Positions 1,913-62,944 of a DNA stretch of 64,000 bases are shown here, piece after piece. Source of the DNA: Hypanus sabinus (lineage: Eukaryota). The notes beneath the pieces were generated by a model. The model was not told the DNA's origin. It made no database searches and saw nothing but the letters and a program-made list of their open reading frames with translations. Position numbers and translations under genes: made by a program. Where the stretch lies: NCBI RefSeq assembly GCF_030144855.1, contig NC_082706.1, forward strand, positions 42,470,001-42,534,000, in the 5' to 3' direction. Position 1 is the first letter of the stretch; every line of letters starts with the position of its first letter.

Positions 1913-1963
1913 CCGGACACCTGAGTGATCGAGGCTGCCCCAGTCCGCGCACCCTCCTCCCCG

Positions 1964-3238
1964 ATGTACGGCCATGCTCCGCTGTTGCTGTCGCTGGCAA
2001 TGCTGGCGCTGCTTGGTGGCCTGCCACACCTGCTGGAACGGAACGGCGGCGTGGCCGAGTGCCCGGGGCCGGGGGGCGACTGGGACTGGGGCGCCGGCAG
2101 CGGGAGCGCGCCCTGCTCCCTGGCCTTCCTTTCGCACAACCCGCTGAGCCTGCACTGCCCGGGGGCGTCGGAAGCCGAGGAGGGCACGTTACACTGGCAG
2201 TACCTCAATTTGAATCGGTCGTCGGGATATCAGCCGTATACCATCGCCGGGCCGCGCGGCCTGCGCACCGTGCGGGGCCCGTTGGGCAAATTGGGCAGCC
2301 GAGCCACGATGCGCGGAGGCGTGCTGTTGCTGTCGCGGGCCTGGCCCTCTGACTCGGGACTCTACCTGTGCAAGGCGGGTGCCGCCACCCTGGCCGCCTA
2401 CCATGTTGACGTGCAAGACTCGGCGCTGCTGCACGTTTCGCACCGGGCGCTGGGCCAGGCTCCGCTGGGCAACCAGAGCGTGCAGCTGGCGCCCGGCCTC
2501 GCCACCCTCCACCTGCATACCCACTGGGCGCCCTGGCAGGACTGCGACCGCTGCGGGGCCGCCGGCGAGCGCAAGCGGCTCGGCTTCTGTTACGCGCTGC
2601 TAGTAGGAGTCGGCGATGAAGATGAAGAAGAATTAGAGGAAGAAGCAGAAGCCCTGCCATGTGGACTCATGCAACTGCGGCTCGGCGAGGCACTGCCCCG
2701 GCGCGGCCCGGAGATCCGCTATGAGACCTGCCGGCGTGCGTGCGCTGGGGACCGGAGCCTGGGCTTACCTGGGCCGACGGACACCGGCACCTCCCTCGAT
2801 TGGCTGCAGCCCCGCACGTTGCTCCTGGAAACGATGCTGCTGGAGCCGTACGAGGAGGCACGCATGACCTGCCCGGGCGCTTCCGTGTACACGCCCGTCT
2901 CCTGGCAACGTGACGCAGCTCCGCTCACCCGGCATGCGCTTCTGCACCCCTGCAAGGGCAGCCGCCATCGCCTGGACGACGCCACGGGCGGCGGGGTCTA
3001 CCGCATCGTCAGCGTGCGCGCCTCCGATAGCGGCGTCTATCGCTGCTGGGTACGCGGGCGCCGCGTCGCCGTCTTCCACCTCGAGCTACCCGAGCCACTG
3101 GCCGCGGACGGCAGCCGACGCCGAAACACCCGCCAGCTGCTCGCCATCGTCCGTGCCCTGATCGGCTCCTTCATCCTGGCCTTCACAGTTGGCGCGCTGG
3201 CCGAACTGCTGCACGCCTGCTGGTGCGAGATGATGTGA
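1964..3238 (+). CDS. FAM187B: FAM187B-like Ig-domain type I membrane protein, paralog 1 (424 aa, single coding exon)
   Basis: Uninterrupted GC/CpG-rich ORF; first ATG is 1964 (track start 1925 is GTG). Signal peptide, Ig domain (C...W...DSGLYLC), family block YHVDVQD..LHVSH..LGQ.PL.N and WAPWQDCDRCG..GERKRLGFCY, second Ig (CPGASVYTPVSW...DSGVYRC), C-terminal TM helix. These blocks match my recollection of FAM187B better than FAM187A. Confidence 0.85.
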   Translation: MYGHAPLLLSLAMLALLGGLPHLLERNGGVAECPGPGGDWDWGAGSGSAPCSLAFLSHNPLSLHCPGASEAEEGTLHWQYLNLNRSSGYQPYTIAGPRGLRTVRGPLGKLGSRATMRGGVLLLSRAWPSDSGLYLCKAGAATLAAYHVDVQDSALLHVSHRALGQAPLGNQSVQLAPGLATLHLHTHWAPWQDCDRCGAAGERKRLGFCYALLVGVGDEDEEELEEEAEALPCGLMQLRLGEALPRRGPEIRYETCRRACAGDRSLGLPGPTDTGTSLDWLQPRTLLLETMLLEPYEEARMTCPGASVYTPVSWQRDAAPLTRHALLHPCKGSRHRLDDATGGGVYRIVSVRASDSGVYRCWVRGRRVAVFHLELPEPLAADGSRRRNTRQLLAIVRALIGSFILAFTVGALAELLHACWCEMM

Positions 3239-14232: not shown

Positions 14233-14517
14233 GTCAAAGGGATTGTTTCGGTTGTCTGTACGCCGTTTAGGACGTGCAAGTTTGGAAGGGGTTGTCTTAA
14301 AACCGGGTCAAAAATCAGCGCCTTTTACCCTTTTAGGACATGTGCAAGTGTAACGTTTCGCCTCTAGTTCTGCACCAGGACGTCGTCGAACGTACGCTCT
14401 GTTTCCATTGTTGAGGCAGAAGACCATTGTCCGTCACTTGGAGATGTAACGTAGGTGATTTGGCGGATGGTCTAGGGAACCAGTGAACCTGCCTTTTCTC
14501 TTTAGGACTCTAGGGGG

Positions 14518-15741
14518 ATGGAAACACAGCTGACCTGGGTCACATTGGTAATGTCCCGAATTCTTCCAATCACACTGCTTTTGACCAGCGCTCTCTCGGC
14601 GTCCGCTGGTTCTTCGAACTCCTGTGACCCAAACCGGTCGTGCCTAATCCCGTTTCTGAGCCGCAACCCGGCCACGCTGATCTGTCCCAACGTCCCTTCC
14701 GAAGCCGGAGAGGTGGCCTGGGCGTACTCTAACAGCTCGGAGCCCGGCTCCGGGGCGGTGGTGCTGGTGGGAGCGGGGGCCGTCCCGCTCGGAGGAGGAA
14801 GTCTGGGCGACCTGCAGTCCCGTTGCCGGTTCTCCCCGCCGCACATCTCCATACGACCCGCCACTGTGCGGGACTCCGGCGTCTACCTGTGTCAGATGGA
14901 CGGCAGGACTTTGGCTTACTACGAGGCGGACGTCCAGGATGTGGAGAAGGCTCACCTCTCGGGCAAGCCCGTCGGAGTCCCGGCGCTACCCAGCACCTTC
15001 CGAGAAGTAAAGGGGCAGCACTGGAAACTTTTCACCGTCTGGAACGCCTGGCAAGATTGCGACCGGTGCGGCGCCCCGGGGGAAAGGAGGCGCCTTGGTT
15101 TCTGCTACGCCCGTCCCGTCGTTGGGCAGGAGCAAGCCGTGCCCTGCGGAATCGCGGCTTCAGCCGGGCGTCCCGAGCTGGCCAGTCGGGGTCCTGAGAT
15201 AGCGCTGGAACCCTGCCAGGTGCCGTGCCTCACAGAATCGCCTTACGAAGCGCACGTCAGGCGCTTGGAGCTGCCGGGTCGAAGATTCGTCCCGCTCGAC
15301 CTACCCCGCACCCTCCTCATCGAGACTTACCTGGTCAACGTCAACGGGAACGCGAGCCTCAAGTGTCCCGGCGCCTCCGCCTTCACCCCGGTCTCCTGGC
15401 GGAGGGACTCCGTCTACATAACGCGGGACGAGCTGTCTAGACGGCGGGGGAGCACTCATTCCTTAGACGAGCTCACCGGGCGCAGCGCCTACACCATTGC
15501 CGGGGCACAGAAAGATGACGAGGGTGTGTACAGGTGCTACGTGTCCGGGGAACTGGCCGCTTCTTTCCACTTGAAAGTGCTGGATCCTTACAGGAGAGGA
15601 GCGGCGGCAGAGGGCAACGCCATAAGCGCTGTCTGGTACTTCTTGGCTACCGTCTCGATGACCTTCGTGCTCCTGGGATTCCTGAGCTTTCTGTACATCT
15701 ACTGCACCCAAGTGCGACGGCACCAGGTCGTTCACTGGTAG
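14518..15741 (+). CDS. FAM187B: FAM187B-like Ig-domain type I membrane protein, paralog 2 (407 aa, single coding exon)
   Basis: Intact ORF: signal peptide, Ig (DSGVYLC), YYEADVQD, WNAWQDCDRCGAPGERRRLGFCY, second Ig (CPGASAFTPVSW...DEGVYRC), TM helix. An acceptor-like CCTTTTCTCTTTAG ends at 14505. Alternative ATG at 14551. Confidence 0.85.
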   Translation: METQLTWVTLVMSRILPITLLLTSALSASAGSSNSCDPNRSCLIPFLSRNPATLICPNVPSEAGEVAWAYSNSSEPGSGAVVLVGAGAVPLGGGSLGDLQSRCRFSPPHISIRPATVRDSGVYLCQMDGRTLAYYEADVQDVEKAHLSGKPVGVPALPSTFREVKGQHWKLFTVWNAWQDCDRCGAPGERRRLGFCYARPVVGQEQAVPCGIAASAGRPELASRGPEIALEPCQVPCLTESPYEAHVRRLELPGRRFVPLDLPRTLLIETYLVNVNGNASLKCPGASAFTPVSWRRDSVYITRDELSRRRGSTHSLDELTGRSAYTIAGAQKDDEGVYRCYVSGELAASFHLKVLDPYRRGAAAEGNAISAVWYFLATVSMTFVLLGFLSFLYIYCTQVRRHQVVHW

Positions 15742-23689: not shown

Positions 23690-25525
23690 AATAGATTAAA
23701 ACTGACAACACTGAATCTATGAACTGGATGGTGTCAAAGAGCCTCAAACTGTCAGACCAGAAGTGATTGAACAGTATGACATTGAACTTCTGAAGTTCGA
23801 CAAGGATACTGGGAAAGCAATTCTGCCTGACGCGTTGAGAACAGAAATACTAAAGCCGGGTTCGAAGTATTTTCAGAACAGTGAGGGGCCTTTAATGCCA
23901 ACAAGTAACTGCTCAATGAACAAAATTTGGTTTAAGAGTAAATTGGGAAACGGTCATGGTGAGGAAGTGACTCGCTCATGGCTGGTCTATTCCCCTTCTT
24001 AAAAGTCTGCATTTTGTATCTGTTACCTTCTCTATTCCCAGTCAGATCATCAAATCTTATTGGAGCAGGAAAATGGATTCAACCAGTGGAAAGCACCTGT
24101 GAGGATTAGTCTTCATGAAAATGCCAAGAATCATCGGAAATGCTTCACACAGTGGAAAGAAATGCAAAGAAATTTAGCTGGAAACAGAGGAGTTATTCAC
24201 GCGGTATTTCAGTCACAGATTGTGAAGGAAAAGCGGAAGTGGCGTGCTATCTTGACGAGAATCCTTCACTGCATAATATTACTTGGAACTCAGAACCTGG
24301 CTTTGCGAGGACACGGGGAATCACTTCAGCTAGACAATGACTCCAATGTGGGAAATTTCCTTGGCTTACTGAAACTACTGACCATTTTTGACCCTGTCAT
24401 AAAAGAACACTTCACTCATTTGGAAAGACATCCTGCATCCACATCTTATCATTCACCAGGTGTCTAGAACAAATTCATCCACATGATGGCATCCACTGTC
24501 CACCAGTGTTTACTGAGAAGCATTCGTAAAGCCTATGGTCTCATGTTCAACACGACTCCTGATCAGGCAGATGTCAGAATTTTATCCATGAGCAGATGTC
24601 AGAATTCGTGAGGTATGTGGAAGTTGATTTTGAGAGGAAAACAGTCCGTGTTAGAGTCCTTCATTAATTTTATCCAGATAAGCCAGAAGGATGCTGAGAG
24701 TTTGGTTGAAGACATCTAGAAACAACTAGAGAAGAATGAAATGGAGCTATCGGTCACAGTGCTATGACAATGTTGCTGTGATGGCTGGACACAGAAGTGG
24801 TGTTGATCAAAGAATAAATGAGAAAAACAGCCTGGTAGTGTTTGTTAATTGCCACAATCACTCACTCATCTTGGTGGGTGTACCTGCAGACAAGCAGGAT
24901 ACAATGATGGTCACATTTTCTGGAACCATCGAAGCTCTCTACATGTTCAATGCAGCACTGGGAAAAACTCAAGAACACCGTGCCTACGGTTGCTAAGTCA
25001 GTGTCCGAAACCAGGTGGAGTGCAAGGACAGAAGCAGTGAAGCCCATTAACAAGTACCTTGAGGAGATACTTCAAGTTCTCCAGGACATGATAGACAATA
25101 AAAACAAGACCAGTGAAACAAGAAGTGATGGAAGGCAGCTGTACAACTGCACGTTGAGTTACGATTTTCTGACTTTGCTAGGATTTTGGAACAAAGTACT
25201 CATTCGCATTGACCGTACTCAAAAGAGGCTGCAGGATCCTGGCATGAACTTCCATGATGCTGCCCTGGATTTGAAAGCCCTCTGGGATCATATTTATGAT
25301 GAAAATTTGGTCAGTGAGTCACTCGAAGGAGGAGTAGGGCTCTATCAAGAATGGAATATTGAAGCTGAAAGACATCAGAGACGAAATAAACGAATGGCTA
25401 ACGAAAACTTGCCAGATGCTGAGTTAATAGTTAAGGAGGAAATGGAAAAAGTCATGAAAGGAACAGTCCACCGTCTTCACAGAAATGGACGAAAGGTTCG
25501 CTCATTTATTTGCACGACACTGACG
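23690..25525 (+). mobile_element. Decayed hAT transposase (ZMYM1-like: TTF zinc finger, DUF4371, RNase H-like core)
   Basis: RSWLVYSPS*KSAFC, QNLALRGH...GNFLGLLKLL..FD, SQCYDN.AVMAG, FVNC.NHSL.L and SETRWSAR motifs split by stops and frameshifts; no TIRs identified. Confidence 0.85.
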
Positions 25526-25598
25526 AAAAGATTAACGAGCTTGATTTGTATTTTCGAGCTGACATTATGGTAAATTTATCTAAAAGATGGAGGTCAGA

Positions 25599-25986
25599 TG
25601 TCAGAAACACACTGAGTCTCAGCAATTTGCAGAACGGTAAACTTTATTTTTCGAGTCTGCAGAGTCGGACCCAACCAGCTCCTGCTAGATTGAGTGCCGA
25701 ATTACACTTTGCACAGTTTTTTATACCCTACATTCTTCTTTAATCTCATTACAAAATTACAAATGTGATTACCCCTTTGGCCCACTTATCAGCCTCAGCG
25801 CATTAACACCGTTATTGTTCAACCGTTAAGCATGTCTTCCCGTTACCCGTATCGCTTCTTTAATCAGCAAGCTATTGTTTCATCCTGATTTTGCAAATTG
25901 GTTTATACGTTGCCCTGCAAGTTGCTTTGCACGTTCTTTCTGTGTCAGCACATTCTAAATGGACTCCTTAAGAATCATTTCTCTCA
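25599..25986 (-). repeat. ERV 3' LTR (388 bp)
   Basis: Identical by eye to 29674..30061; preceded on the minus strand by PPT AAAAAGAAAAAGGGTGG. Confidence 0.95.
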
Positions 25987-26016
25987 ATCCACCCTTTTTC
26001 TTTTTAGAATGTGCTA

Positions 26017-26541
26017 TCAGTTGGGCTTTTGCCACGGGTTTACATAGGCTTCTTCCTCTAGCTCTATTTCCCTTTGTAGGAGTACCTGAACAGGATCAGC
26101 TGGGGCCCCTGGTTGCATGACTTGTCTTGCCACCCGAGCTACTAGCTCCCGCAAGCAGGGGATCAGACATGGTAGCAGAAGGAGGACCATCAATCCCCCT
26201 CCTATAACCCCTAAAGCGGTTCGCCACCAGCCTCCTTTCAACCATCCGTCCAGCCAGTCCCAATACCCCAGCGGCTTCCAGGTCTGTACCGGCACGTGGG
26301 CTAGTTTCCTTATTTTATCTGATATTTTTTTGAACCACCTTTCCGTTGTCATCTATCTTTCAGCAGCAGTTGGTTAGATTAAACTTTCCACATACTCCTC
26401 CTTTTTGTTGTAGTCATAACATTTCTCGTTTACATGCGAGTGTGATACAAAGGACCCTGGAAAAACCGTCATGCCCACCCTTACCGTCGTCCTGCACTTA
26501 TCACATCCCCCTTCAGCGCTTCTCAACAATAGCAGTATATA
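26017..26541 (-). pseudogene. env: ERV env remnant: signal peptide and SU start joined to the TM C-terminus
   Basis: MYILLLLRSAEGGCDKCRTT..., then after a junction near 26400 GGVCGKFNLTNCC*KIDDNG and RKLAHVPVQTW followed by a TM helix (LLLLPCLIPCL). Confidence 0.85.
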
Positions 26542-26558
26542 CATTACAGTCCCAAAGT

Positions 26559-27150
26559 TCAATCTGTCCGTCTTTTGAGCTTTAGCACCATCGGGTCTTC
26601 TCCCTGGACGCAAGTCCATTCTGCACCTTCTTCGGGCTTTACGGGTCCCTTGATTCTCGCGGCGTGGGTCCACCCTTTTTCTTTTGTCCTTACTGCGGCT
26701 TCGGTGGTCAGTAGCACCTGGAATCGGCCTTCCCACTGCTGCTGTAACTTCTCTGGCTTCCAAGTCTTAATCAGGACCCAGTCACCGGGCTGAGTTCGGT
26801 GGAGTGCGAAGTCCAGAGGTGGGGTTTGTGCGAGTAACCCCTTCCTGCGCAATTCTGCAAAAGAACGAGACAGTGCCTGTAAATAGTCCCTTACAAAGAC
26901 ATCTCCCCCTTGCAGGGAAGGATAGCCCTCCACCTTGTTCCAATATGGAAGGCCAAACAACATTTCATAAGGGGATACTCCTATATCTTTTCGAGGAGCC
27001 GTGCGGATTCTTAGTAGGGCCAGGGGTAGACACTTGGTCCAGGGTAGCTTGGTTTCCATTAGTTTTGTCAATTGCTTCTTCAAAGTACTGTTCATCCTCT
27101 CAACTCTTCCTGAGCTCTGAGGGTGCCAGGGGGTGTGCAGCTTCCACTCG
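26559..27150 (-). pseudogene. pol: ERV integrase C-terminal half
   Basis: WQLHTPWHPQSSGRVERMNSTLK, ALLRIRTAP, SPYEMLFG and WEGRFQVLLTT; the HHCC domain and the first two catalytic Asp residues are missing. Confidence 0.9.
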
Positions 27151-27154
27151 CCTT

Positions 27155-28430
27155 CTGATGTTTGTCGGGCTCCCCTGTTGATTCTCCGTATAAGAACTGT
27201 GCCGGGTTACAACTATTGTTCTTTTCAAAGCTTAAATCATCCCCGACCATCAGAATGGTTTCGTATTTCAGTATGCGAGAGTCCGTCAACCACCGCTGAG
27301 CTTTTTGGGCTAAGAGGGTGCTAACGGAGTGCGGGGTATTCATTCTTCCCCCAAAGGTTAATTTCCGTGCTTCTTCTACTAGTACGGCTGCTGCCGCTAC
27401 GACTTGTATGCACGTCGGCCATCCCCGGGATACCGGGTCTAACATTTTTGATAAAAAGGCCACAGGTTGCCGCTTTCCTCCTTTTTCTTGGGTTAGTACT
27501 CCTAACGCAGTTCCTTCATTGTTTGTTGCATACAGCTGAAAGGGCTTTTCCAGTGCTGGCAGTGTTAATACCGGGGCCCGAATTAGTTGCCCTTTTATTT
27601 TCCTGAACTTCTGTTCTTCTTCTTCGGTCCAGCTGATCATTCCCCGGTCTTCCTTTGCCAATTTGTCGTACATAAACTTCACCAGGGGGGTATAATTCTC
27701 TATCCAAATCCGGCAATAGCCCACTAAGTCCAGAAATTGTCTTATTTCCTTCTTTGTCCTGGGAAGCGGTATTTTAGTTATTCCCGCTATTCTTTCTGGG
27801 GTTATTTGGCGGTGCCCTTTACTGACTCTGTGTCCGAGATATGTTATTTCCTTCTCGACAAATTGCAGTTTCTTCTTGGACACCCGCAATCCTTTTTCTC
27901 CTAGGTAATTCAGGAGTCTTATAGTATCGTCTCGCACTACCTCCTCTGCTGGTCCCGATAGTAGTAGGTCATCGACATACTGTAATAGTTGGTTCTTTTC
28001 GGTACAATGGAATCCAGCCAATACTTGCTCCAGTACCTGTTCGAATAGGTTTGGGGACTCCGTGAACCCTTGGGGCAAGACGGTCCACCGGAGTTGCTTC
28101 TTCCGCCCAGTGAAGGGATTTTCCCATTCAAATGCGAACATATCTCGGCTACCTTCCTCCAACGGGCAACTCCAAAAGGCATCTTTTAGATCTATCACAC
28201 TGAACCATTCATGTTCAGGAGGTATTTTGCTCATTAATGTATCGTGTTTGGACTACCGCATTTAAGCCTCTCAGATCTTGAACCATTCGATACGTGCCGT
28301 CGGGCTTTCGGACCGGTAGGATGGGGATATTAAAGGGTGACATACATTCTTCCAGGAGTCCATCTGATACTAATGTCTCAATTACAGGTTGTAATCCCCT
28401 CCTCCCTTCCATGGCAATGGGATATTGCCG
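27155..28430 (-). pseudogene. pol: ERV reverse transcriptase (polymerase, connection and tether; RNase H deleted)
   Basis: RQYPI, YRMVQDLR, IDLKDAF, LPQGF and QYVDDLL; one frameshift near 28235. Confidence 0.92.
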
Positions 28431-29361
28431 TCTTCTCTCTTCTGCTTGTTTGTCCCACTGTGGGTCGTTTACTGGAAATTTCCGGTCCCCCGGTAACTCA
28501 TTCGGCTGTTCCCTTCCCCAAATTGATATTGCAGCTTGTCGTATCATTTGCCTCTCTTGTGCAGAAAATAGCGTTCCCATAATCGCATGCATTTCTTCCC
28601 AAGTGTAAACATTAGGTCCTAAGAATTGATCCAACTGTTCTGCCAGTCCCATCGGATCTTCTAATAAAGTTTTCATATCTTTCTTAAATCCTCGTACTTC
28701 GGTACTTGTCAGAGGGACGTTTACAAATCCTGTTCCTCCCCGTTCTCCTCCCATTGGAACCTCTCGAAGGGGACACAGCTGTACCTCTTCCTTTTTTAAT
28801 TCGTCTTTCTTTTTCTTATCTGCTCCTGTCACACTCCTTGTTTCGATCCTTGCTTTTGCTTTTTCCCTAACATCCCTCTCTTCCCTCTTCAGGTCTATTT
28901 CTTCTGTTTTTTTCACTTTCTTCACGTCCTCCCTCTGCTCCCGTAAGGGGCGCAGAAGGCTGGACATAGGGAGGGGGTAAATGATCGAGTAGGTCCCACT
29001 TCCGCTCACCTTTAATGCCCAACTTAAAACTCTTTGTTGTTACTCCTGGCCAGGGAGCCCAACAAAAAGCATAAGCAATTTCTTCCGGTTTTACATTTGG
29101 TTTTGAATTAACGTAAATGTTTAAGGCTTGTCGTACCCAATCCTCCTCAGACCCAAGCCGCGGCCACCAGACCGCAGGTTTTTCTATCGGCTGTTTCGAC
29201 CAAATTAAACAGTACTGTATCATTTTTTTCTTTTGTTTCCCTTTTAGTCTTCCACATCCCCAATTCTCAAACATTCTACCGAGGGGGCTATCAGGAGGAA
29301 CCCCCGGGTATGGTCCCGGTCTCTCCGTTTCCTCTTTCTTTTTAGAGCCACCCCCTCCCAT
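28431..29361 (-). pseudogene. gag: ERV gag remnant (MA, late domains, CA N-terminal part)
   Basis: MGGGGSK myristoylation start, PPDSPLG..W, PPPY and PSAP late motifs, frameshift, then GFVNVPLTSTEVR...QLDQFLGPNVYTWEE...DPQWD. Confidence 0.88.
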
Positions 29362-29652
29362 CTTATTCCGCTCTTACTTAATCAGGAGGACCCCCGGGTA
29401 GCGATCCCGGTCTTCTCCGTCCTTACTTATTCCCGCACCTTTCTACTATAATAGTAGGCACTTACCCGGTGCGTCCTGGGGACTTCCAGTACCAGGTACT
29501 GTCCCCTTCTCCCCGTTTACCGCTCTGCGCTGTCCGGATATCACTCGCTCAAGCCGCGTTGGAGCGACGAGCAAGGAGTCAGGGACCGCCAAACTCGGCG
29601 GGGTGCACCGTCTCCGATGTCCTTCCTCGTGTCCACCGCGGCCGGAGTGTGG

Positions 29653-29670
29653 ATCCCGGACGAGCCCCCA
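29653..29670 (-). promoter_or_regulatory. Primer binding site for tRNA-Pro
   Basis: Minus strand TGGGGGCTCGTCCGGGAT is the 18-nt MLV-type PBS-Pro, 3 nt after the 5' LTR. Confidence 0.95.
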
Positions 29671-29673
29671 CGT

Positions 29674-30061
29674 TGTCAGAAACACACTGAGTCTCAGCAA
29701 TTTGCAGAACGGTAAACTTTATTTTTCGAGTCTGCAGAGTCGGACCCAACCAGCTCCTGCTAGATTGAGTGCCGAATTACACTTTGCACAGTTTTTTATA
29801 CCCTACATTCTTCTTTAATCTCATTACAAAATTACAAATGTGATTACCCCTTTGGCCCACTTATCAGCCTCAGCGCATTAACACCGTTATTGTTCAACCG
29901 TTAAGCATGTCTTCCCGTTACCCGTATCGCTTCTTTAATCAGCAAGCTATTGTTTCATCCTGATTTTGCAAATTGGTTTATACGTTGCCCTGCAAGTTGC
30001 TTTGCACGTTCTTTCTGTGTCAGCACATTCTAAATGGACTCCTTAAGAATCATTTCTCTCA
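29674..30061 (-). repeat. ERV 5' LTR (388 bp) with TATA box and polyA signal
   Basis: Minus strand GGGTATAAAAAA (about 29792-29803) and AATAAA (about 29718-29723). Confidence 0.95.
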
Positions 30062-30134
30062 ATAGATATTTGGACAGGAGCGCAATTTCAGTGCTTGCCA
30101 TAGGCGATATTTCCGCAGATACGCCCGTCCGAAA

Positions 30135-30607
30135 GTTCAAATTTTATCGTGTTTATCGTGTTCAGGGGGGTTTTCTAGTAGACTCACCACTCTAGCAGCC
30201 GTGGATTTGCTGAGCGACGCTACCACATTGAAATTTTTGGTACTGTTGGCGGACATTTCTGGCAGCGCGACCTGGGCCTCGGTTTGTACAGACCAAGCAA
30301 CGGCATTTTGTTGCCAGAAACTCCGGCAGTTTGAAAGCGACTGCATTGGCCGACACGTTCAACAACTCTGGAATCGGCCTCCAGCATTGCGGTCACCAAT
30401 GTAGGTTTTCGCAAATAAAAACTACGAAAGCGTTTTAGTTGATGAACTACCGTAACCACTCATTTACTCTGAACACTGAAATCTCGCACGGTAAAAAGCT
30501 CATTACGTAATCACGTCATCGCGTCAAGACAGCCTTCCAAAGTGAACCACAACCCAATGTCGGTGGCTGTGAATTTCATATGTTTCCACCAATTACCTTA
30601 CACTACG
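30135..30607 (-). mobile_element. Ty3/Gypsy relic: LTR, PBS and gag N-terminus
   Basis: FWQQNAVAW.VQ.EAQ.AL...VV.LLENPPEHDK gag motif; PBS TGGTGACC at 30391-30398; LTR begins TGTAGG at 30400. Confidence 0.75.
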
Positions 30608-31471
30608 AGACTATTAAGTTGTTCCCTAGTACAATAAGTTAGACTCTTAACCTCAAAACCTACCTCTTTATGAACTTGCGGCCACTTCGTATGGATTGGC
30701 AACACCCCCTGCTGCATAGGTACACTGGTGTATCACAAGATGTGTGCTTAACTCCGAGCCCTACTCACTTTATGATTGTGTAGCTAAGTACAGCTCCGAT
30801 GCCAAAGTAAGTCTGGCTGAATCAAAAGTGGTGACGAATCAGAATATGGAAGGGAGACTGAAAATCTTGTCGAGTGATGCCACTACAACAATCTCTCACT
30901 CAATAGCTGCAAAATCAAAGAGCCGATACGAACTACAGGACAAAGAAGCAGGGAATACATTAGCCTGACTTAATAGGGGGACGGAGATGGAGAGGGTCAG
31001 TAGTTTTGAATCCCTTGCCATCACCCTCCAACAATCAGGCTCCTGAACCAGCCCCGGATAACTTCACTCACCACTTTTCTGAACTGATCCCACAACTGAA
31101 GAACTCACTTTCAAGGACACTTTACAACTCATGCAATCAGTATTATTTATATCTGCACGTTTTTTTTTTGCAGGTTGTTTGTTGGTAGGCCTTTGACAAT
31201 TTATGGACAGTACCTCACAGCTGTCGGGTAAAGAGCCAACATTCTCTGTAGCTGTTACACTTTATACTGCATTGTTATTGTTTTAACTTACTCTACCTCA
31301 ACGCACTGTGGAATGATTTAAATGGTATAAACAGTGCGCTCTGTAAATGTGACAAAAATTAAACCTTTTCCAATTTGGAGACAAGTTGTTTTCAATATAT
31401 CTTACCTTGCAGAATACAGGACTCAAAACAATCAATGATCAATTTGATCCTCTTCTTGTTAAACCCAAAAC

Positions 31472-31911
31472 CACTCAATGCCGACTTTATTAGCTACACC
31501 TATACACTTGCACATTAATGCAAATATCTAAGCAGCCAATCATTAGGAAGCAACTCAATGCATAACAACATGCAGATATCGTCAAGTGGTACACTTCTTC
31601 AGGCCAAACATGAAAATAGGGAAGAAATGTGATTCTAGGTGACTTTCATTGTGGAATGATTATTGGTGCCAGATGGTTTGAGTATCTCAAAAACAAATGA
31701 CCTCCTTGAATTATCACACACGATAGTCTCTAGAGTTTACAGACACAAAGGTGTGAAAAACAAAAAAATAACATTGAGTCAACAGCAGTTCTGTGGGCGA
31801 CTATGACAAGTTTTGAAGTGGATGGACTACCACAGCAGAAGACCATGAACCTACACTCAATGGCCACTTTTATTAGGTACAGGAGATACTTAATAAAGTG
31901 GCCACAGAGTG
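31472..31911. mobile_element. Non-autonomous Tc1/mariner element
   Basis: TIR-like CACTCAATG(G)CC.ACTTTATTAG at the left end and TAATAAAGTGGCCACAGAGTG at the right, with an extra TIR copy at 31855; the interior resembles a Tc1 transposase start. Confidence 0.7.
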
Positions 31912-36512: not shown

Positions 36513-37069
36513 GAGTGGTAAAAAACGCGAGAACAGGGGATTTTTGAGGGAAGGGGTCGATTGCACCGGGAGGAGTAAGCAGGTTAAATCGAGGGTCCAG
36601 GAAGACGCTGCGGTTTCAGTGAACAGAACGAACCTCGGTTACTAGTCAGGGATGCTCCGAAAACCGTCCCGATCTCCCAACCTCTCCCACACATGAAAGG
36701 GTCGAGAACGGCAGGGTGGTGCAGTGGGTGGAGATGGTGTCTCCCTGTGTCAGCAGTCAATGGTAGGTCAAATGCATTTGTCCGCGCTGGGTGTAATGGT
36801 ACGCCAGCACCCACAGGCTATCCCTCAGCCCCGACAGCTCCATAGGAACCCCTTTCCTACACGGACTGTGACGGTTTGAGGGTGGAGGCAGCTGGAACCA
36901 CCCCCACTCCACTTTGTCAGTGGACGGGGCGAGAGGGGAGATAAATTTTGGCCAAAGGACGGAAATAAATAGATTAAAGAGCTGTTGCGGAAGAATAGTT
37001 TGAGATGTCTGTGATTTAAATTGGTTAGGTACAACTTCGATCATCTCGAACATAAAAAATGTAGCATAG

Positions 37070-40000
37070 GAAAAGGCCTTTGAGCGTGTTAACATGAACC
37101 AACTGGCTCGGCTTTAGTCTATCAGGTGTTTCGATCACATAATTCAGAGAGTCTGTTTTCTTGATCACCTTGTACGGCCCTTGAAATCTCGCCTGTAGGG
37201 GGTTGGTAACTACAGGGAACTGGACCAAAACCTTATCGCCCACTTGAAATTTTTGTTCTCGGGTTCGTTTATCATACCATTGTTTCATTTCAGTCTGGGA
37301 GTCTTTAAGATTTTGCTTTGCTAACTCGCAAACCTTATAGAGCCTCTCACGGAACCTCAAAACATCGTCAATCATATTGACTTGCACATTTAGACCAGAC
37401 CATTTTTCTTTGAGTAAGGTTAGGGGTCCTCTGGGCCTGTGACTAAAAACGAGCTCAAACGGACTGAACCCCAGAGATTCCTGAACCTTGTCCCTCACTG
37501 CAAATAACAGAAGTGGTAATGCATCATCCCAGTCTCGAGCGTTTTCCTGACAGTAGGTTTTAATCGTGGTCTTTAAAGTCGCGTGGAATCCTTCCAACGC
37601 TCTTTGAGATTCCGGGTGGTATGCAGAGGCTAGAATTTGTTTAACTCCCATCCGTGTCAACATTTGCTGAAATGCACGGGACGTGAAGGTACTCCCCTGA
37701 TCTGACTGTATCTGTCCAGGTAACCCTACCGTGGTGAAAAATTTAATGAGTGCCTTTACTACCGCAGGAGTCCTAATGTTTCCCAGGGGCACAGCCTCTG
37801 GGAATCGAGTAGCAGCACACATCATGATCATGACATACTGCCGCCCACTCGCAGTTCTAGGCAGGGGACCCACAAAATCCACGAGGATTCAGGACAAAGG
37901 CTCCCCAAAGGCAGGTATGGGTCTGAGGGGTGCCTTAGGGATAACCTGATTTGTCTTTCCTACCACCTGACAAGTATGGCACCTTTTTCAATAGTCAGCA
38001 ATATCTTTCCTCATACTTGGCCAATAAAAATCTTTCATAACCCTCTCTACTGTCTTCCTTACTCCCAAATGTCTACCTCGAGGTCCCTTGTGAGCCAAGT
38101 TCAAAACCTCATCCCGATAAACCTTCAGAACTACCACCTGGTGTACCACCGCCCAGTCCTCATCCACTGGCACCGTGGTCGGCCTCCACTTCCTCATTAA
38201 CACTCCCTCCTTCAGATAGTATCCCTCTGGTTCTTTATCAATCTCTACTTCAGAAAGAGCTGATTCTTTCAACACCACAAGCTCCTCATCACGACTCTGT
38301 TCCTTTATAAAGTCCCACCTTGCTAATGATAGATCTAGCTCCTCTCCTTTACTCCCTTTAACCTCACTATTCTCCGCTTTACCACCCTCTAACCCCTCTT
38401 GGTACAGAGTCGGTAAAAACGTCTCCGCTAAATCAACGCTGGACTCATTTAAACTGGCTCCTTTCTCAGCCGCCTTTCTCGACATGCTGCGAGTGAATGC
38501 GCATGCGGGATAAATCTTGGAATTTATGGGCGGGTCCTCAGCGCTTACAGGCTTACTTGTTAGTTTCACTGCTGAATACACGTCACCACCTGCCAGATCG
38601 TGTTACCAAGTAGGACGTCCACGCCCTCCATCGGTAGTTTCGACCTATTTCGACTGGTCCAGATACCAGGTCACATTTCAGAAACATCCTGTGCAAAGGT
38701 ACGGCCTCTGTCCCTTTTCCGATACCCATTAACACAACCTCTCCAGTCTCAGTCTCCGGACCAAAATCCAGCACCTTCCTGAGAATCAATGACTGATCAG
38801 CCCCAGTGTCCCTATCCGCACTGGAACTGGGGTTTCTCCTTCCTTCACAGACACTGGCCCTTCCGAGATAAACTTCTCACGCCCCTCTTGTGCTCTTTCT
38901 ATCTTTGCCTTCCTCATCGATCTGCTGACCGACTCAATGCAACCGGTAGGGACTGCTATTTTCCCTTTTCCTGTCTCCTTCTTCGGAGCAAAGCACTTAG
39001 ATGCTCTATGACCAGCTTTCCCACAATTATAACAGGTAAAACGAGGAACCTTCCTGCCAGCCTGCTTTTCCTCCTCCTCACCTTTTCCACTAGCTCCCGG
39101 CTTATTCTCTGCCTTAGCCGGTGGGCTTTCTCTACCGTCCCTACTGCCTCTCTGGTAGTTCTTGTTTGAGGAAAACTTTGACTTGTGGGTTAAGGCGTTC
39201 TCGTCTGCTAACTTGGTAGTCGCAGACAGAGCCTCCATCTCCTTCTCATCCAAGTACATCTTCATACTCTCAGGGATACAACCTTTGAACTGCTCTATCA
39301 GCATTAACTGTAATAGTTTATCATAATCTCCAACAACCCCTTTTGAGGCACACCAACGTTCACAATACATTTGCAGCTCACGGACAAACTCTAAATATGT
39401 GTGGTTCCATGGCTTTCTCAAGTTCCGGAACTTCTGCCGGTATGCCTCTGGCACCAACTCCTAACTCCTCAGTACAGCCCTTTTTACTTCCTCATAATTC
39501 CTAGACTCCTCCATGGACAATGCCGGTTACATTTGCTGAGCCTTCCCCCTAAGTACGCTCTACAACAGAACAGCCCATTTCCCCTTAGGCCAGTTCTGAT
39601 TCACAGCCACTTTATCAAAATGGAGGAAGAACTTATCGACATCCATCTCCTCGAATGGAGGTACCAACTGAATCTCCCGACCAATCTTGAACCCCTCATT
39701 TGGGTCTGCTGCCCGGTCTCTTACCTGCTGTACCTTTAATTTCTCTATTTCCAGCTCATGCTGCTCCTCTTTCTCCCTTTCCTCCCTCTACTTATCAGCT
39801 TCCTCCTTCTGCCTTGCAGCCTCTTCCTTCTCCCTTTCAGCCTCCTCTCTCCTCCTTTCAGCCTCCATCTCCTTTATCCGGAGCTGCCTTTTCTCTTTCT
39901 CCTCAACCAACCTTAATTTTTCCATCTCTAACTGAACCTCCCCCTCGGCTGGTTTCCTATCAGGGAACAGGTCCAATACATCCGATGTGAACACACCCTC

Positions 40001-47338: not shown

Positions 47339-47502
47339 NNNNNNNNNNNNNNNNNNNNNNNNNNNNNNNNNNNNNNNNNNNNNNNNNNNNNNNNNNNNNN
47401 NNNNNNNNNNNNNNNNNNNNNNNNNNNNNNNNNNNNNNNNNNNNNNNNNNNNNNNNNNNNNNNNNNNNNNNNNNNNNNNNNNNNNNNNNNNNNNNNNNNN
47501 NN
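47339..47502. other. Assembly gap (164 N)
   Basis: Run of N. Confidence 1.
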
Positions 47503-60910: not shown

Positions 60911-61554
60911 ACTCTAGATACAAGAACGAAGGGAAAGTGTAGAATTGGACTGAAAACCAATCGGTGGCAGGAATCAAAATGTTGGAGGGTAAAGTACAGA
61001 ACGCAAGACAACAGCAGTAGAAGCGGTTCGCTGTTCTGCCGTTCAATATGACAAAGGTTGATCTGCCCCGAGGTTCATCTCCTCTCCTGTTCCCCGGTCT
61101 CTGCTGCCTTCAATTCTGAAAGGGAGGAGATTGTAAGGTAGCCCTCCTGCAAAATAATTAGAATCAAAATCAGGTTGTTTTTTTAATCACTGACATACGT
61201 TGTGAAAGTTCTTGTTCTGTTGCAGCCGTCCAGCGCAATACTTAAGAGTACTATACGTTACAATAAACAACTAAGTAAGATAATGAATAAATATGGACAA
61301 AGTTCATACTGTAGATAAATAGATAAATTAGATAGATGGATGGATAGATAGCTGGATAGCTAAAGACACCATTAGAGAAATTAAATAGTGCAAAAGAGAA
61401 ATAGCGCGCTAGTGTTCATGGGTTCACGAAGCATTCAGAAATCAAAGCAACAAATTCCGTGTCATATGTCAATGATAATAAACCGGATTCTGATTCCTGT
61501 TAACCTGAGAGGTTGCTCCGGAGTAAGTGTGTAACGCATTAAATATTTCCGCAG

Positions 61555-61964
61555 GAATGTACATTCGGGAAAACCAGACAGTATGGGTCAATGGAAGCTG
61601 CCAAACCAAATGTAAATGTTCCTCGGAAGGGTTGTTAACGTGTGTTTCTGAACCGTGCGGCGCGGCAGAGATCTGCGTTCCTGCTCCACCGTTCCACGCC
61701 TGCCGCCCAGTCTCGATGAAGACCTGCGACGTTTACGGAGACCCCCACTATTACACCTTCGACCAGAGGGTCATCCACTTCCAGGGGACGTGCACCTATG
61801 TCCTGTCCGAGCTGTGTGATGGACTGTCAGACTTGACCTACTACAGGGTGGAGGGAGCGAACGAGAACCGCGGGAGCGTGGCCGTATCGTTCGTGAGACT
61901 CGTCCGTCTCCTGGTCTACGGAACTGAAGTTATTATGCTCAAGGGGACTACCAACTACGTCCTG
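61555..61964 (+). CDS. Alpha-tectorin-like coding exon 7 (VWC-like and VWD start)
   Basis: C..KCKC....TC....C...EIC, then TCDVYGDPHYYTFD...FQGTCTYVL; 410 nt, phase 1-0. Confidence 0.92.
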
Positions 61965-62271
61965 GTAAATCGGCGGGAGAATAACTATTTCAGTTCATTA
62001 ATTTTAGCTCGAAATAGTTGGAATTCCTCCTGATGCCGGACGCTCTCTTGGCGGAGAGTGATTGGGATTGAATGTTTGTGGTTCGATGTGGGGCAGTGCG
62101 ATTCGTTTCAGGGCTGAATGATAAGGCAGTTGGGAGAGCGCGGGTCATGGGTTTAGTTTGGGGACTGACAGTGAAGTGGGAGGGAATGAGGCAGTGGGAT
62201 GAGTTATGGGACTAATGCGGGGCTGTGTGATTTGTCGTGGAACTGATACAGTCCTGACGATTGTCTTGCAG

Positions 62272-62842
62272 GTGAACGGGACCCGGAGTTCCGTCCCGGT
62301 CTTCCTCGAGGATGGCCGACTCCAAGTCCGGACCGCCGGGTTCACTATGAGGGCGACAGCGGACTTCGGACTGACCGTGACCTACGATGGCTCCCACCAC
62401 GCCTCGATCACCCTGCCAGGATCCTATCACGGAGCCGTCTGTGGGATGTGCGGGAATATGAACGGGGACCCCTCCGACGACTTGCGCACGCGCAGCGGGA
62501 ACCTTACGACCTCGCCGGGGATATTCGGGGCCAGTTGGAGGGTGGACGGCGATGGCGGAGGGGACGTATGCCGGGACTCCTGCACAGATGGGTGCGGAGT
62601 CTGCACCGAGGCGGAACGCTACTCGTTGCCGTCCTCCTGCGGCCTCCTCCGAGCCCAGAACGGCCCCTTCCGACATTGCCATGCCGCTATCGACCCTCAG
62701 GATTTCGAGCAGAGCTGCGTCTATGACCTGTGCGCCACCGGCGGCCTGGAGGCCAGCCTCTGCCAGGCTCTCTCCAGCTATGCCGAGGCGTGCCGCTCTG
62801 CTGGGATGAGGCCAGAGCCCTGGAGGACCGAGACATTCTGCG
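62272..62842 (+). CDS. Alpha-tectorin-like coding exon 8 (VWD end and C8); gene continues beyond the window
   Basis: DFGLTVTYDG...CGMCGNMNGDPSDD...GPFRHCH..IDP..F..SCVYDLC...LCQALSSYAEAC...WRTETFC; 571 nt, phase 0-1. Confidence 0.92.
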
Positions 62843-62944
62843 GTAGGGTCCGCCTGTCGGAAATATCACGGTATCACAGCACGGAAGCCCTCTAGCTTGA
62901 TTCCCCAGCACCGGGGGTGGGGGGTGGGGTGGTGTGGGTGGAAC

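Follow-up and report, generated by a model that had tools for sequence, protein, structure and literature searches.

A heavily deleted class I endogenous retrovirus with identical long terminal repeats in Hypanus sabinus, likely copied by a helper while already broken

It is already known that endogenous retroviruses (ERVs) carrying deletions can be mobilised in trans, as is the case for IAP IΔ1, the bovine D-type elements and recKoRV. The last of these, from the koala, is reportedly a class I provirus that was disabled and then remobilised by an intact relative. IAP IΔ1 has a 1.9-kb gag-pol deletion, and such deleted ERVs can dominate new insertions (PMC1331978), while for the D-type of cattle activity has been measured in sperm (PMC10924933). 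According to the accessible literature, the ERVs described so far in cartilaginous fishes are over 50 million years (My) old (PMC4422223) or single fragments, and the retroviruses of these hosts are scattered through the retroviral tree (PMC6001957). A pan-vertebrate screen for what Wang and Han (2023) call ERVi covered 13 cartilaginous fishes, and the 37 host orders given in its accessible part include none of sharks or rays; 12 of its 14 supplement files have 0 matches to Hypanus, Hemitrygon or Mobula (PMC10435555). Here we describe a provirus in a 64,000-nucleotide stretch of the Hypanus sabinus genome (assembly GCF_030144855.1, contig NC_082706.1, positions 42,470,001 to 42,534,000 of the forward strand; we refer to the whole stretch as the window and number it from its first letter). 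The provirus is a class I ERV with identical long terminal repeats (LTRs) and four large deletions, and we consider it fairly likely that it is non-autonomous and was copied by a helper provirus when it was already broken. We found no literature report of such a helper-copied family in rays, where subscription journals and the Repbase and Dfam libraries, which lay outside our reach, may catalogue it.

On the minus strand, the provirus occupies 4463 bp (25599-30061). Its ends and the signals beside them are:

29674-30061, minus strand: 5' LTR, 388 bp, TG...CA, with TATA at 29800 and AATAAA at 29723
29653-29670, minus strand: primer-binding site (PBS), beginning 3 nt past the LTR
29362-29652, minus strand: leader, with a splice donor GT at 29465
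25987-26005, minus strand: polypurine tract (PPT, about 26005-25989) plus AT
25599-25986, minus strand: 3' LTR, same sequence as the 5' LTR

Direct comparison of the LTR pair (25599-25986 with 29674-30061) finds 388 of 388 bases equal, as a first-pass annotation made from the letters alone had claimed, and the PBS, PPT, TATA box, polyA signal and splice donor are all found where that annotation had put them. The equality reaches 2 bases past the LTR, the AT at 30062-30063 being the same as the AT between the PPT and the 3' LTR. We read the PBS at 29653-29670 as being of the tRNA-Pro type and not Ile. The leader is, from its position, the likely packaging region.

The coding remnants and the junctions between them are:

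28438-29361, minus strand: gag, with matrix (starting MGGGGS), a p12-like part and the N-terminal domain of capsid (CA); frameshift near 28910
28430-28445, minus strand: deletion junction 1, in frame; the C-terminal part of CA, nucleocapsid (NC), protease and the start of reverse transcriptase (RT) lost
27171-28437, minus strand: RT polymerase and connection domains, YVDD intact
27141-27174, minus strand: deletion junctions 2 and 3, with a short integrase remnant in between
26559-27140, minus strand: C-terminal part of integrase, with the last catalytic Glu region and MLVIN_C
26404-26544, minus strand: start of env, signal region and first part of the surface subunit (SU); aligns to residues 9-79 of a 593-residue shark Env
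26396-26403, minus strand: deletion junction 4, an inferred 8-bp direct repeat
26017-26395, minus strand: remnant of the transmembrane subunit (TM), with cysteine loop, membrane span and tail; stop near 26360, frameshift near 26325

Three large deletions had been counted on the first pass. All three sites are confirmed against relatives, and the real number is four: the site near 27155 is two deletions. Junction 1 cost ~1.1-1.2 kb, as estimated against relatives. Junction 2, near 27170, removed RNase H (about 207 codons), and junction 3, at 27148-27141, the zinc finger and catalytic core of integrase (167 codons), with an integrase remnant of 22-30 bp separating the two. Junction 4 removed about 390 codons of SU and the start of TM, including the immunosuppressive motif that is present in the Env of relatives. 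We estimate the total loss at ~3.5 kb, about 45% of a genome of roughly 8 kb. Pfam recognises in the element a partial Gag_p30 (E 3e-5, below cut-off), RVT_1, RT_RNaseH_2 (here the connection/tether domain), MLVIN_C and a weak rve_3, and the same search of the element gave no RVP, RNase_H or rve match. The smaller lesions reported earlier are also borne out: frameshifts in gag near 28910, in RT near 28240 (a small frameshifting deletion) and in TM near 26325, and the TM stop near 26360. To these we add a small in-frame deletion in RT near 27340. A change in the RT 'FEQ' motif, at one point a candidate for damage in the window, was dropped; two H. sabinus gene models of the family (P0132 and P0202) carry the same change. 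Because NC, protease, RNase H, the integrase core and most of Env are gone, the element is, to judge by its coding content, unable to copy itself, and lacking protease, RNase H, integrase core and Env it needed a helper.

The element is assigned to class I because its RT is closest to the p80 RT/RNase H chains of the PDB (4mh8, 4hkq and 5dmq, E about 2e-87), with weaker matches to foamy Pr125Pol (2e-24), 7sr6 (1e-10) and HIV-2 (6e-10). We take the three p80 chains to be MLV/XMRV enzymes. Gag and integrase markers agree with RT, Gag_p30 being above cut-off in the sibling gene models P0202 and P0259 and MLVIN_C above cut-off in the window, and the earlier call of a class I provirus in a cartilaginous fish, here a ray, stands. 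The RT is identical to an H. sabinus gene model over 137 of 137 residues, and relatives occur in Hemitrygon (83-86% identity), Rhinoraja (70-74%) and Leucoraja (61-71%). In an RT tree of 44 rows, none of them dropped, the window groups with 4 H. sabinus copies (support 99/97). The clade around them (34 rows, 100/100) is made up of ERVs from sharks, rays, birds and squamates, a fit to HERV-I in host range only. The earlier label 'HERV-I-like' is compatible with this as a lead, the tree holding no row named HERV-I, HERVIP, ChiRV1 or lemon-shark. The best named matches of Env are ERV3-1 Env-like (57%), and the TM cysteine loop is retained. On the viral strand the interior is 31.5% A; in PMC4724089, A content over 31% marks the HERV-I/HERVIPADP-like group but also other groups, and PBS use is an unstable trait for ERV classification. 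A scan of viral_contigs with P0259 returned no relative. Among the skates, Leucoraja erinacea has a 16-member cluster (P0092) with several 882-residue Pol models of a related ERV, and in the bamboo shark Chiloscyllium there are several 593-residue Env models in the P0276 cluster; other elasmobranchs, too, may have young class I families related to this one.

The evidence that the damage was inherited and not acquired on the spot lies in other copies of the family. We compared nine H. sabinus gene models, four of which span CA to RT. In 2 of these 4, P0132 and P0254, on records of 212.3 and 167.9 Mb, the gag-RT junction of the window is matched to the residue. The other two, P0202 and P0259, have a different in-frame deletion in common, which joins the C-terminal part of CA to mid-RT. 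That both gag-RT deletion lineages are in frame may reflect annotation bias or selection. The NC/protease region, with the zinc finger and the gag-pro frame, is deleted in the window and in all four spanning models. P0254 has junction 1 together with an intact RNase H.

Sequencing reads extend the comparison beyond gene models. Twenty public runs were listed, of which 18 hold part of the element, 13 studies being represented; 5 of the 20 hold at least half of the element's words (best share 0.78), and there is no RNA run among the listed holders. Contigs of four runs (X2, X5, X6 and X7) were compared over 25989-31500, with 31 letters on the short side as the bar for a contig that crosses a junction; the evidence comes from these four and takes nothing from the 14 remaining holders (shares 0.10-0.78, organism labels A and E-M plus an invertebrate metagenome). 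In X2, the contig 27689-28468 crosses the gag-pro junction at depth 524 with 31 letters, the contig 27145-27332 crosses the RNase H junction at depth 795 with 25-29 letters, and the contig 25989-26425 crosses the env junction at depth 1210 (1244 upstream) with 22-30 letters; by our reasoning no contig could reach further than such 22-30 letters past a branch point. In X5 the gag-pro crossing has 30 letters and a depth of 18.8, against 31.6 in RT. Most of the family signal in X2 carries the env junction. Depth in X2 is 450-1450 in the interior, 12-41 past the LTR and 0.15 in the last flank bin, a contrast that shows a much-repeated deleted form, summed depth not being equal to copy number.

The integrase core is kept in X2 and X5, where loose ends flank 27141-27148 and record 10 of X5 gives 527 further letters; the integrase-core deletion and the small lesions are found only in the window. 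Contigs of X5, X6 and X7 all stop at 27170, which hints at a common RNase H breakpoint. The family is also present in X6 and X7, under two further organism labels, with an identity of about 98-98.5% (33 of 1883 letters differ from the window in X6, 24 of 1646 in X7). The dominant gaps of X6/X7 differ (RT depth ~22 vs 120, ~70 vs 370-480), with env joints at 26166-26419 and 26239-26406 and other deleted forms also at window 27800-28446. Both window LTRs are without a 40-bp stretch of U3 (near 29806) that part of the family carries, and the U3-short variant is a minority path in X5 (depth 7.5 vs 22); the family has at least two LTR variants.

RNase H is still there in P0254, as is the integrase core in X2 and X5; the losses therefore form a nested series, of which the window has the most reduced member found. 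Since other copies of the family also have the gag-pro, RNase H and env junctions, we take three of the four large deletions to predate this insertion. The first-pass annotation had proposed that all the damage predates the insertion and was copied by a helper; this is supported for those three deletions, the integrase-core deletion having been seen in the window only. One outcome it had named as damaging to its proposal, deletions unique to this locus, does not fit the same three recurring junctions.

Short direct repeats at deletion junctions are expected of reverse-transcriptase jumps. The contig ends let us infer such repeats of 8 bp at env, 5 bp at RNase H and 8 bp at integrase, the exact repeat at the gag-pro junction being at most 1 bp. 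In the mechanism that we propose, the deletions would have arisen stepwise by jumps of this kind, env and gag-pro first, RNase H next and the integrase core last. The shortened RNA would then be packaged by the Gag-Pro-Pol of an intact family member, its reverse transcription would make both LTRs identical, and the product would integrate into an old hAT-like element, where repair at the U3 end would have been slightly faulty. As to the helper, RNase H is intact in 5 of the 9 H. sabinus models, the integrase core in 4 and protease in 0. The 39 TM matches, from a search whose 50% clustering can hide one, include no full-length Env of the family and no full-length Env closer than 57%; the best TM match is a 204-residue Logan protein at 67% identity. 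Record 19 of X6 continues for 670 letters upstream of RT, and there are hints in contigs of X5 and X6 that RT is entered by other paths as well. From the near-fixed env deletion in X2 it follows only that passengers did not need an Env of their own.

The age of the copy calls for separate treatment. Changes found only in the window number 16 substitutions in 3687 internal bases plus 6 indels, against 0 in the LTR pair (of 22 candidate substitutions, we dropped 6 because the window's letter is also found in X2 or X5, or in both X6 and X7). If all of these had arisen after insertion, the probability of zero LTR differences would be 0.03-0.05 on substitutions and 0.01-0.015 with indels. Only 1 of the 8 C>T/G>A changes is at CpG, for which P is 0.03 at a 5-fold CpG rate and 0.13 at 3-fold, the CpG rate in rays being an assumption and the copy one chosen for its identical LTRs. 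The observed-to-expected ratio of CpG is 0.73 in the element, 0.41 in the window and 0.42 in the surrounding hAT. The substitution count and the CpG spectrum modestly favour copying of the damage over decay in place. What the data do not show is that the copy is 'very young' and the retrovirus 'recently or currently active', as the first-pass annotation had it. A pair with 0/388 differences allows a divergence of 0.77%, and with the rate that PMC4422223 assumes, 2.2e-10 per site per year, the age is bounded only to 17.5 My, with 1e-9 to 3.8 My; for the epaulette shark a rate of 7e-10 per generation is given (PMC10587355). The copy probably arose late in the history of the family, within the last few million years. 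The mechanism is better supported than it was on the first pass, and the age is weaker.

Several findings weigh against late copying of an already broken element. The RNase H and env crossings, at 22-30 letters, lie below the 31-letter bar, as does the gag-pro crossing of X5 at 30; depths summed over contigs do not count copies; and the junctions of the siblings are known from protein models, where gene models can invent introns. Neither the nine H. sabinus models nor the TM search yielded an intact helper or a full-length family member, and the target-site duplication is imperfect. As for age, the window differs from its siblings by 2.1-3.6% in amino acids and the siblings among themselves by 1.9-2.6% in RT and 0-2.0% in integrase, which fits an older copy too, and the RT end branch of the window (0.014) is not shorter than those of the siblings (0-0.014). 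Last, the window LTR has 0 substitutions relative to family contigs (0/200 in X2, 0/216 in X5) while the interior differs from them by ~0.6% (21/3646 in X2). Youth together with selection on the LTR would give this pattern, and so would homogenisation.

The alternative that survives these points best, and that we nonetheless think unlikely, accepts the helper-copied family but makes the copy as old as its siblings and the family extinct, with the private damage acquired in place and the LTR identity due to chance or conversion. The slow rates of sharks, with which 0/388 is compatible up to 17.5 My, and the branch lengths just given speak for such an account, and the presence of the family under two other organism labels at about 98-98.5% suits it as well. 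A large family, moreover, will include some identical-LTR copies by chance, and this one was picked for that. The account has to absorb, however, the probability of 0.01-0.05 for zero LTR differences, the non-CpG spectrum, and a CpG ratio that is higher in the element (0.73) than in the hAT around it (0.42).

We regard it as improbable, and clearly more so, that assembly or polishing pulled both LTRs to one sequence and so produced their identity, perhaps along with the AT at 30062-30063. Such a process could explain why the LTR matches family contigs without a substitution while the interior is ~0.6% off, and why the identity extends 2 bases into the flank; two of the interior frameshifts, too, are in A-runs. 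But the interior retains private variants and the locus was therefore resolved, and the sole N run of the window (164 N at 47339-47502) is distant from the provirus. The common junctions are independent of LTR identity in any case, and retention of one viral end base in place of a target base beside the left LTR is on record for 1 of 15 XMRV proviruses (PMC2857682).

Less probable again is that the common junctions are recurrent, independent hot-spot deletions, or spliced RNA, in copies that were inserted at full length. The 8-bp repeats inferred at env and integrase and the 5-bp repeat inferred at RNase H would provide the hot spots, and the shared contig ends of X5, X6 and X7 at 27170 could be read in the same way. 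Yet the gag-pro junction recurs to the residue despite its exact repeat of at most 1 bp, the RT and TM contigs of X2 show no alternative entry path at those junctions, and the intact siblings continue with a Gly codon and no obvious GT donor, as inferred from protein. That the copies with the same junctions are segmental duplications of one old locus is the least credible reading of all, for although the target duplication is imperfect and the sibling loci are known without flanks, the siblings differ in the further deletions they carry and depth in X2 falls from 450-1450 in the interior to 12-41 past the LTR and 0.15 in the last bin.

Beyond the copying of a broken element by a helper, we offer as a tentative and rather doubtful extension that the germ lines of stingrays still see mobilisation of a class I retrovirus, which would have spread among several ray species, each dominated by its own deleted parasites, and that the in-frame Gag-RT fusions of two separate deletion lineages may be favoured through co-assembly into helper particles. 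If this is true, the literature searched contains no earlier case of a retrovirus caught in the act of invading a cartilaginous fish.

The insertion lies in the 3' part of a hAT-like element:

24003-25598, resuming at about 30064-30130, plus strand: target, a decayed hAT-like DNA transposon (weak assignment)
30062-30066, plus strand: upstream junction, AT followed by the 3-bp duplicated target bases

Support for hAT comes from DUF4371 (E 0.0015, below cut-off) and from a FAM200-GTF2IRD2-like cluster (54% of members, score 0.92). Only 3 bases match in the target duplication (25596-25598 and 30064-30066), with the AT beside the 5' LTR. Six X6 contigs part from the window sequence at 30064, and their letters from there on are similar to the opposite flank; the AT at 30062-30063 is therefore likely not host. 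The simplest reading would be a 5-bp staggered cut whose gap repair retained the unpaired viral end (AT), comparable to the one-base retention in XMRV mentioned above; an assembly slip is a possible source of the AT. The flank motif occurs once in the window, with no unfilled copy that could represent an empty site, and no piece joining LTR to flank, as at an orthologous site, is among the matches listed for X2, X5, X6 and X7. Abutting the hAT-like element is a DUF7041 fragment (30137-30459, minus strand), an instance of nested mobile elements. DUF7041 is presumably a retrotransposon gag.

Elsewhere in the window there are two single-frame FAM187-like immunoglobulin-domain genes (1925-3238 and 14506-15741, 12.5 kb apart). 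Among named matches, the closest to the FAM187B-like gene are in sawfish (68%), skate (61%) and electric ray (56%), and its 90% cluster includes a Mobula birostris protein. A decayed LTR retrotransposon with SCAN-domain gag, zinc knuckle and integrase occupies 37025-39460 on the minus strand, and the N run at 47339-47502 adjoins a purine-rich low-complexity stretch. At 61527-62895 on the plus strand are exons with TILa, VWD and C8 domains, which we assume to be of the IgGFc-binding protein or tectorin type. A tRNA scan and a bacterial promoter scan were empty and uninformative.

The locus suggests that stingrays have a large class I family of low divergence, which deleted forms came to dominate as they did in mice and cattle. 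The locus offers a fish test case for the idea that defective copies drive ERV families extinct, its junctions are markers for counting copies and testing polymorphism, and it illustrates that identical LTRs date poorly in slow-evolving hosts. Among other cartilaginous-fish insertions, the elephant-shark CmiERVs differ in being snakehead- or epsilon-like and dated at over 50 My (PMC4422223). To the HERV-I/HERVIP-like elements, the lemon-shark fragment and chicken ChiRV1 the likeness consists in an RT clade with shark, skate, bird and squamate ERVs, A-richness and an ERV3-1-like Env, whereas the LTRs of human HERVIP diverge by 10-19%, unlike the identical pair in the window (PMC4724089, PMC4422223). 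ERVi status, as PMC10435555 sets it out, comprises identical LTRs, intact genes and insertional polymorphism; the ray element has identical LTRs and lacks intact genes, and because its genes are broken it is not an ERVi in that sense.

Koala recKoRV is reportedly a recombinant with an unrelated element and part of an ongoing invasion, whereas no foreign segment was found in the ray element. The D-type copies of bovine ERVK[2-1-LTR] are similarly non-autonomous and copied in trans, and outnumber competent copies by 85% to 15%, but swap a central segment for old retroelement sequence where the ray element has plain deletions (PMC10924933). Mouse IAP IΔ1 and ETn/MusD are class II, env-less and proven active, in contrast to a class I element that has env remnants and nested deletions and is known from sequence alone; what they have in common with it is internal deletion, with LTRs and packaging parts kept and complementation in trans (PMC1331978).

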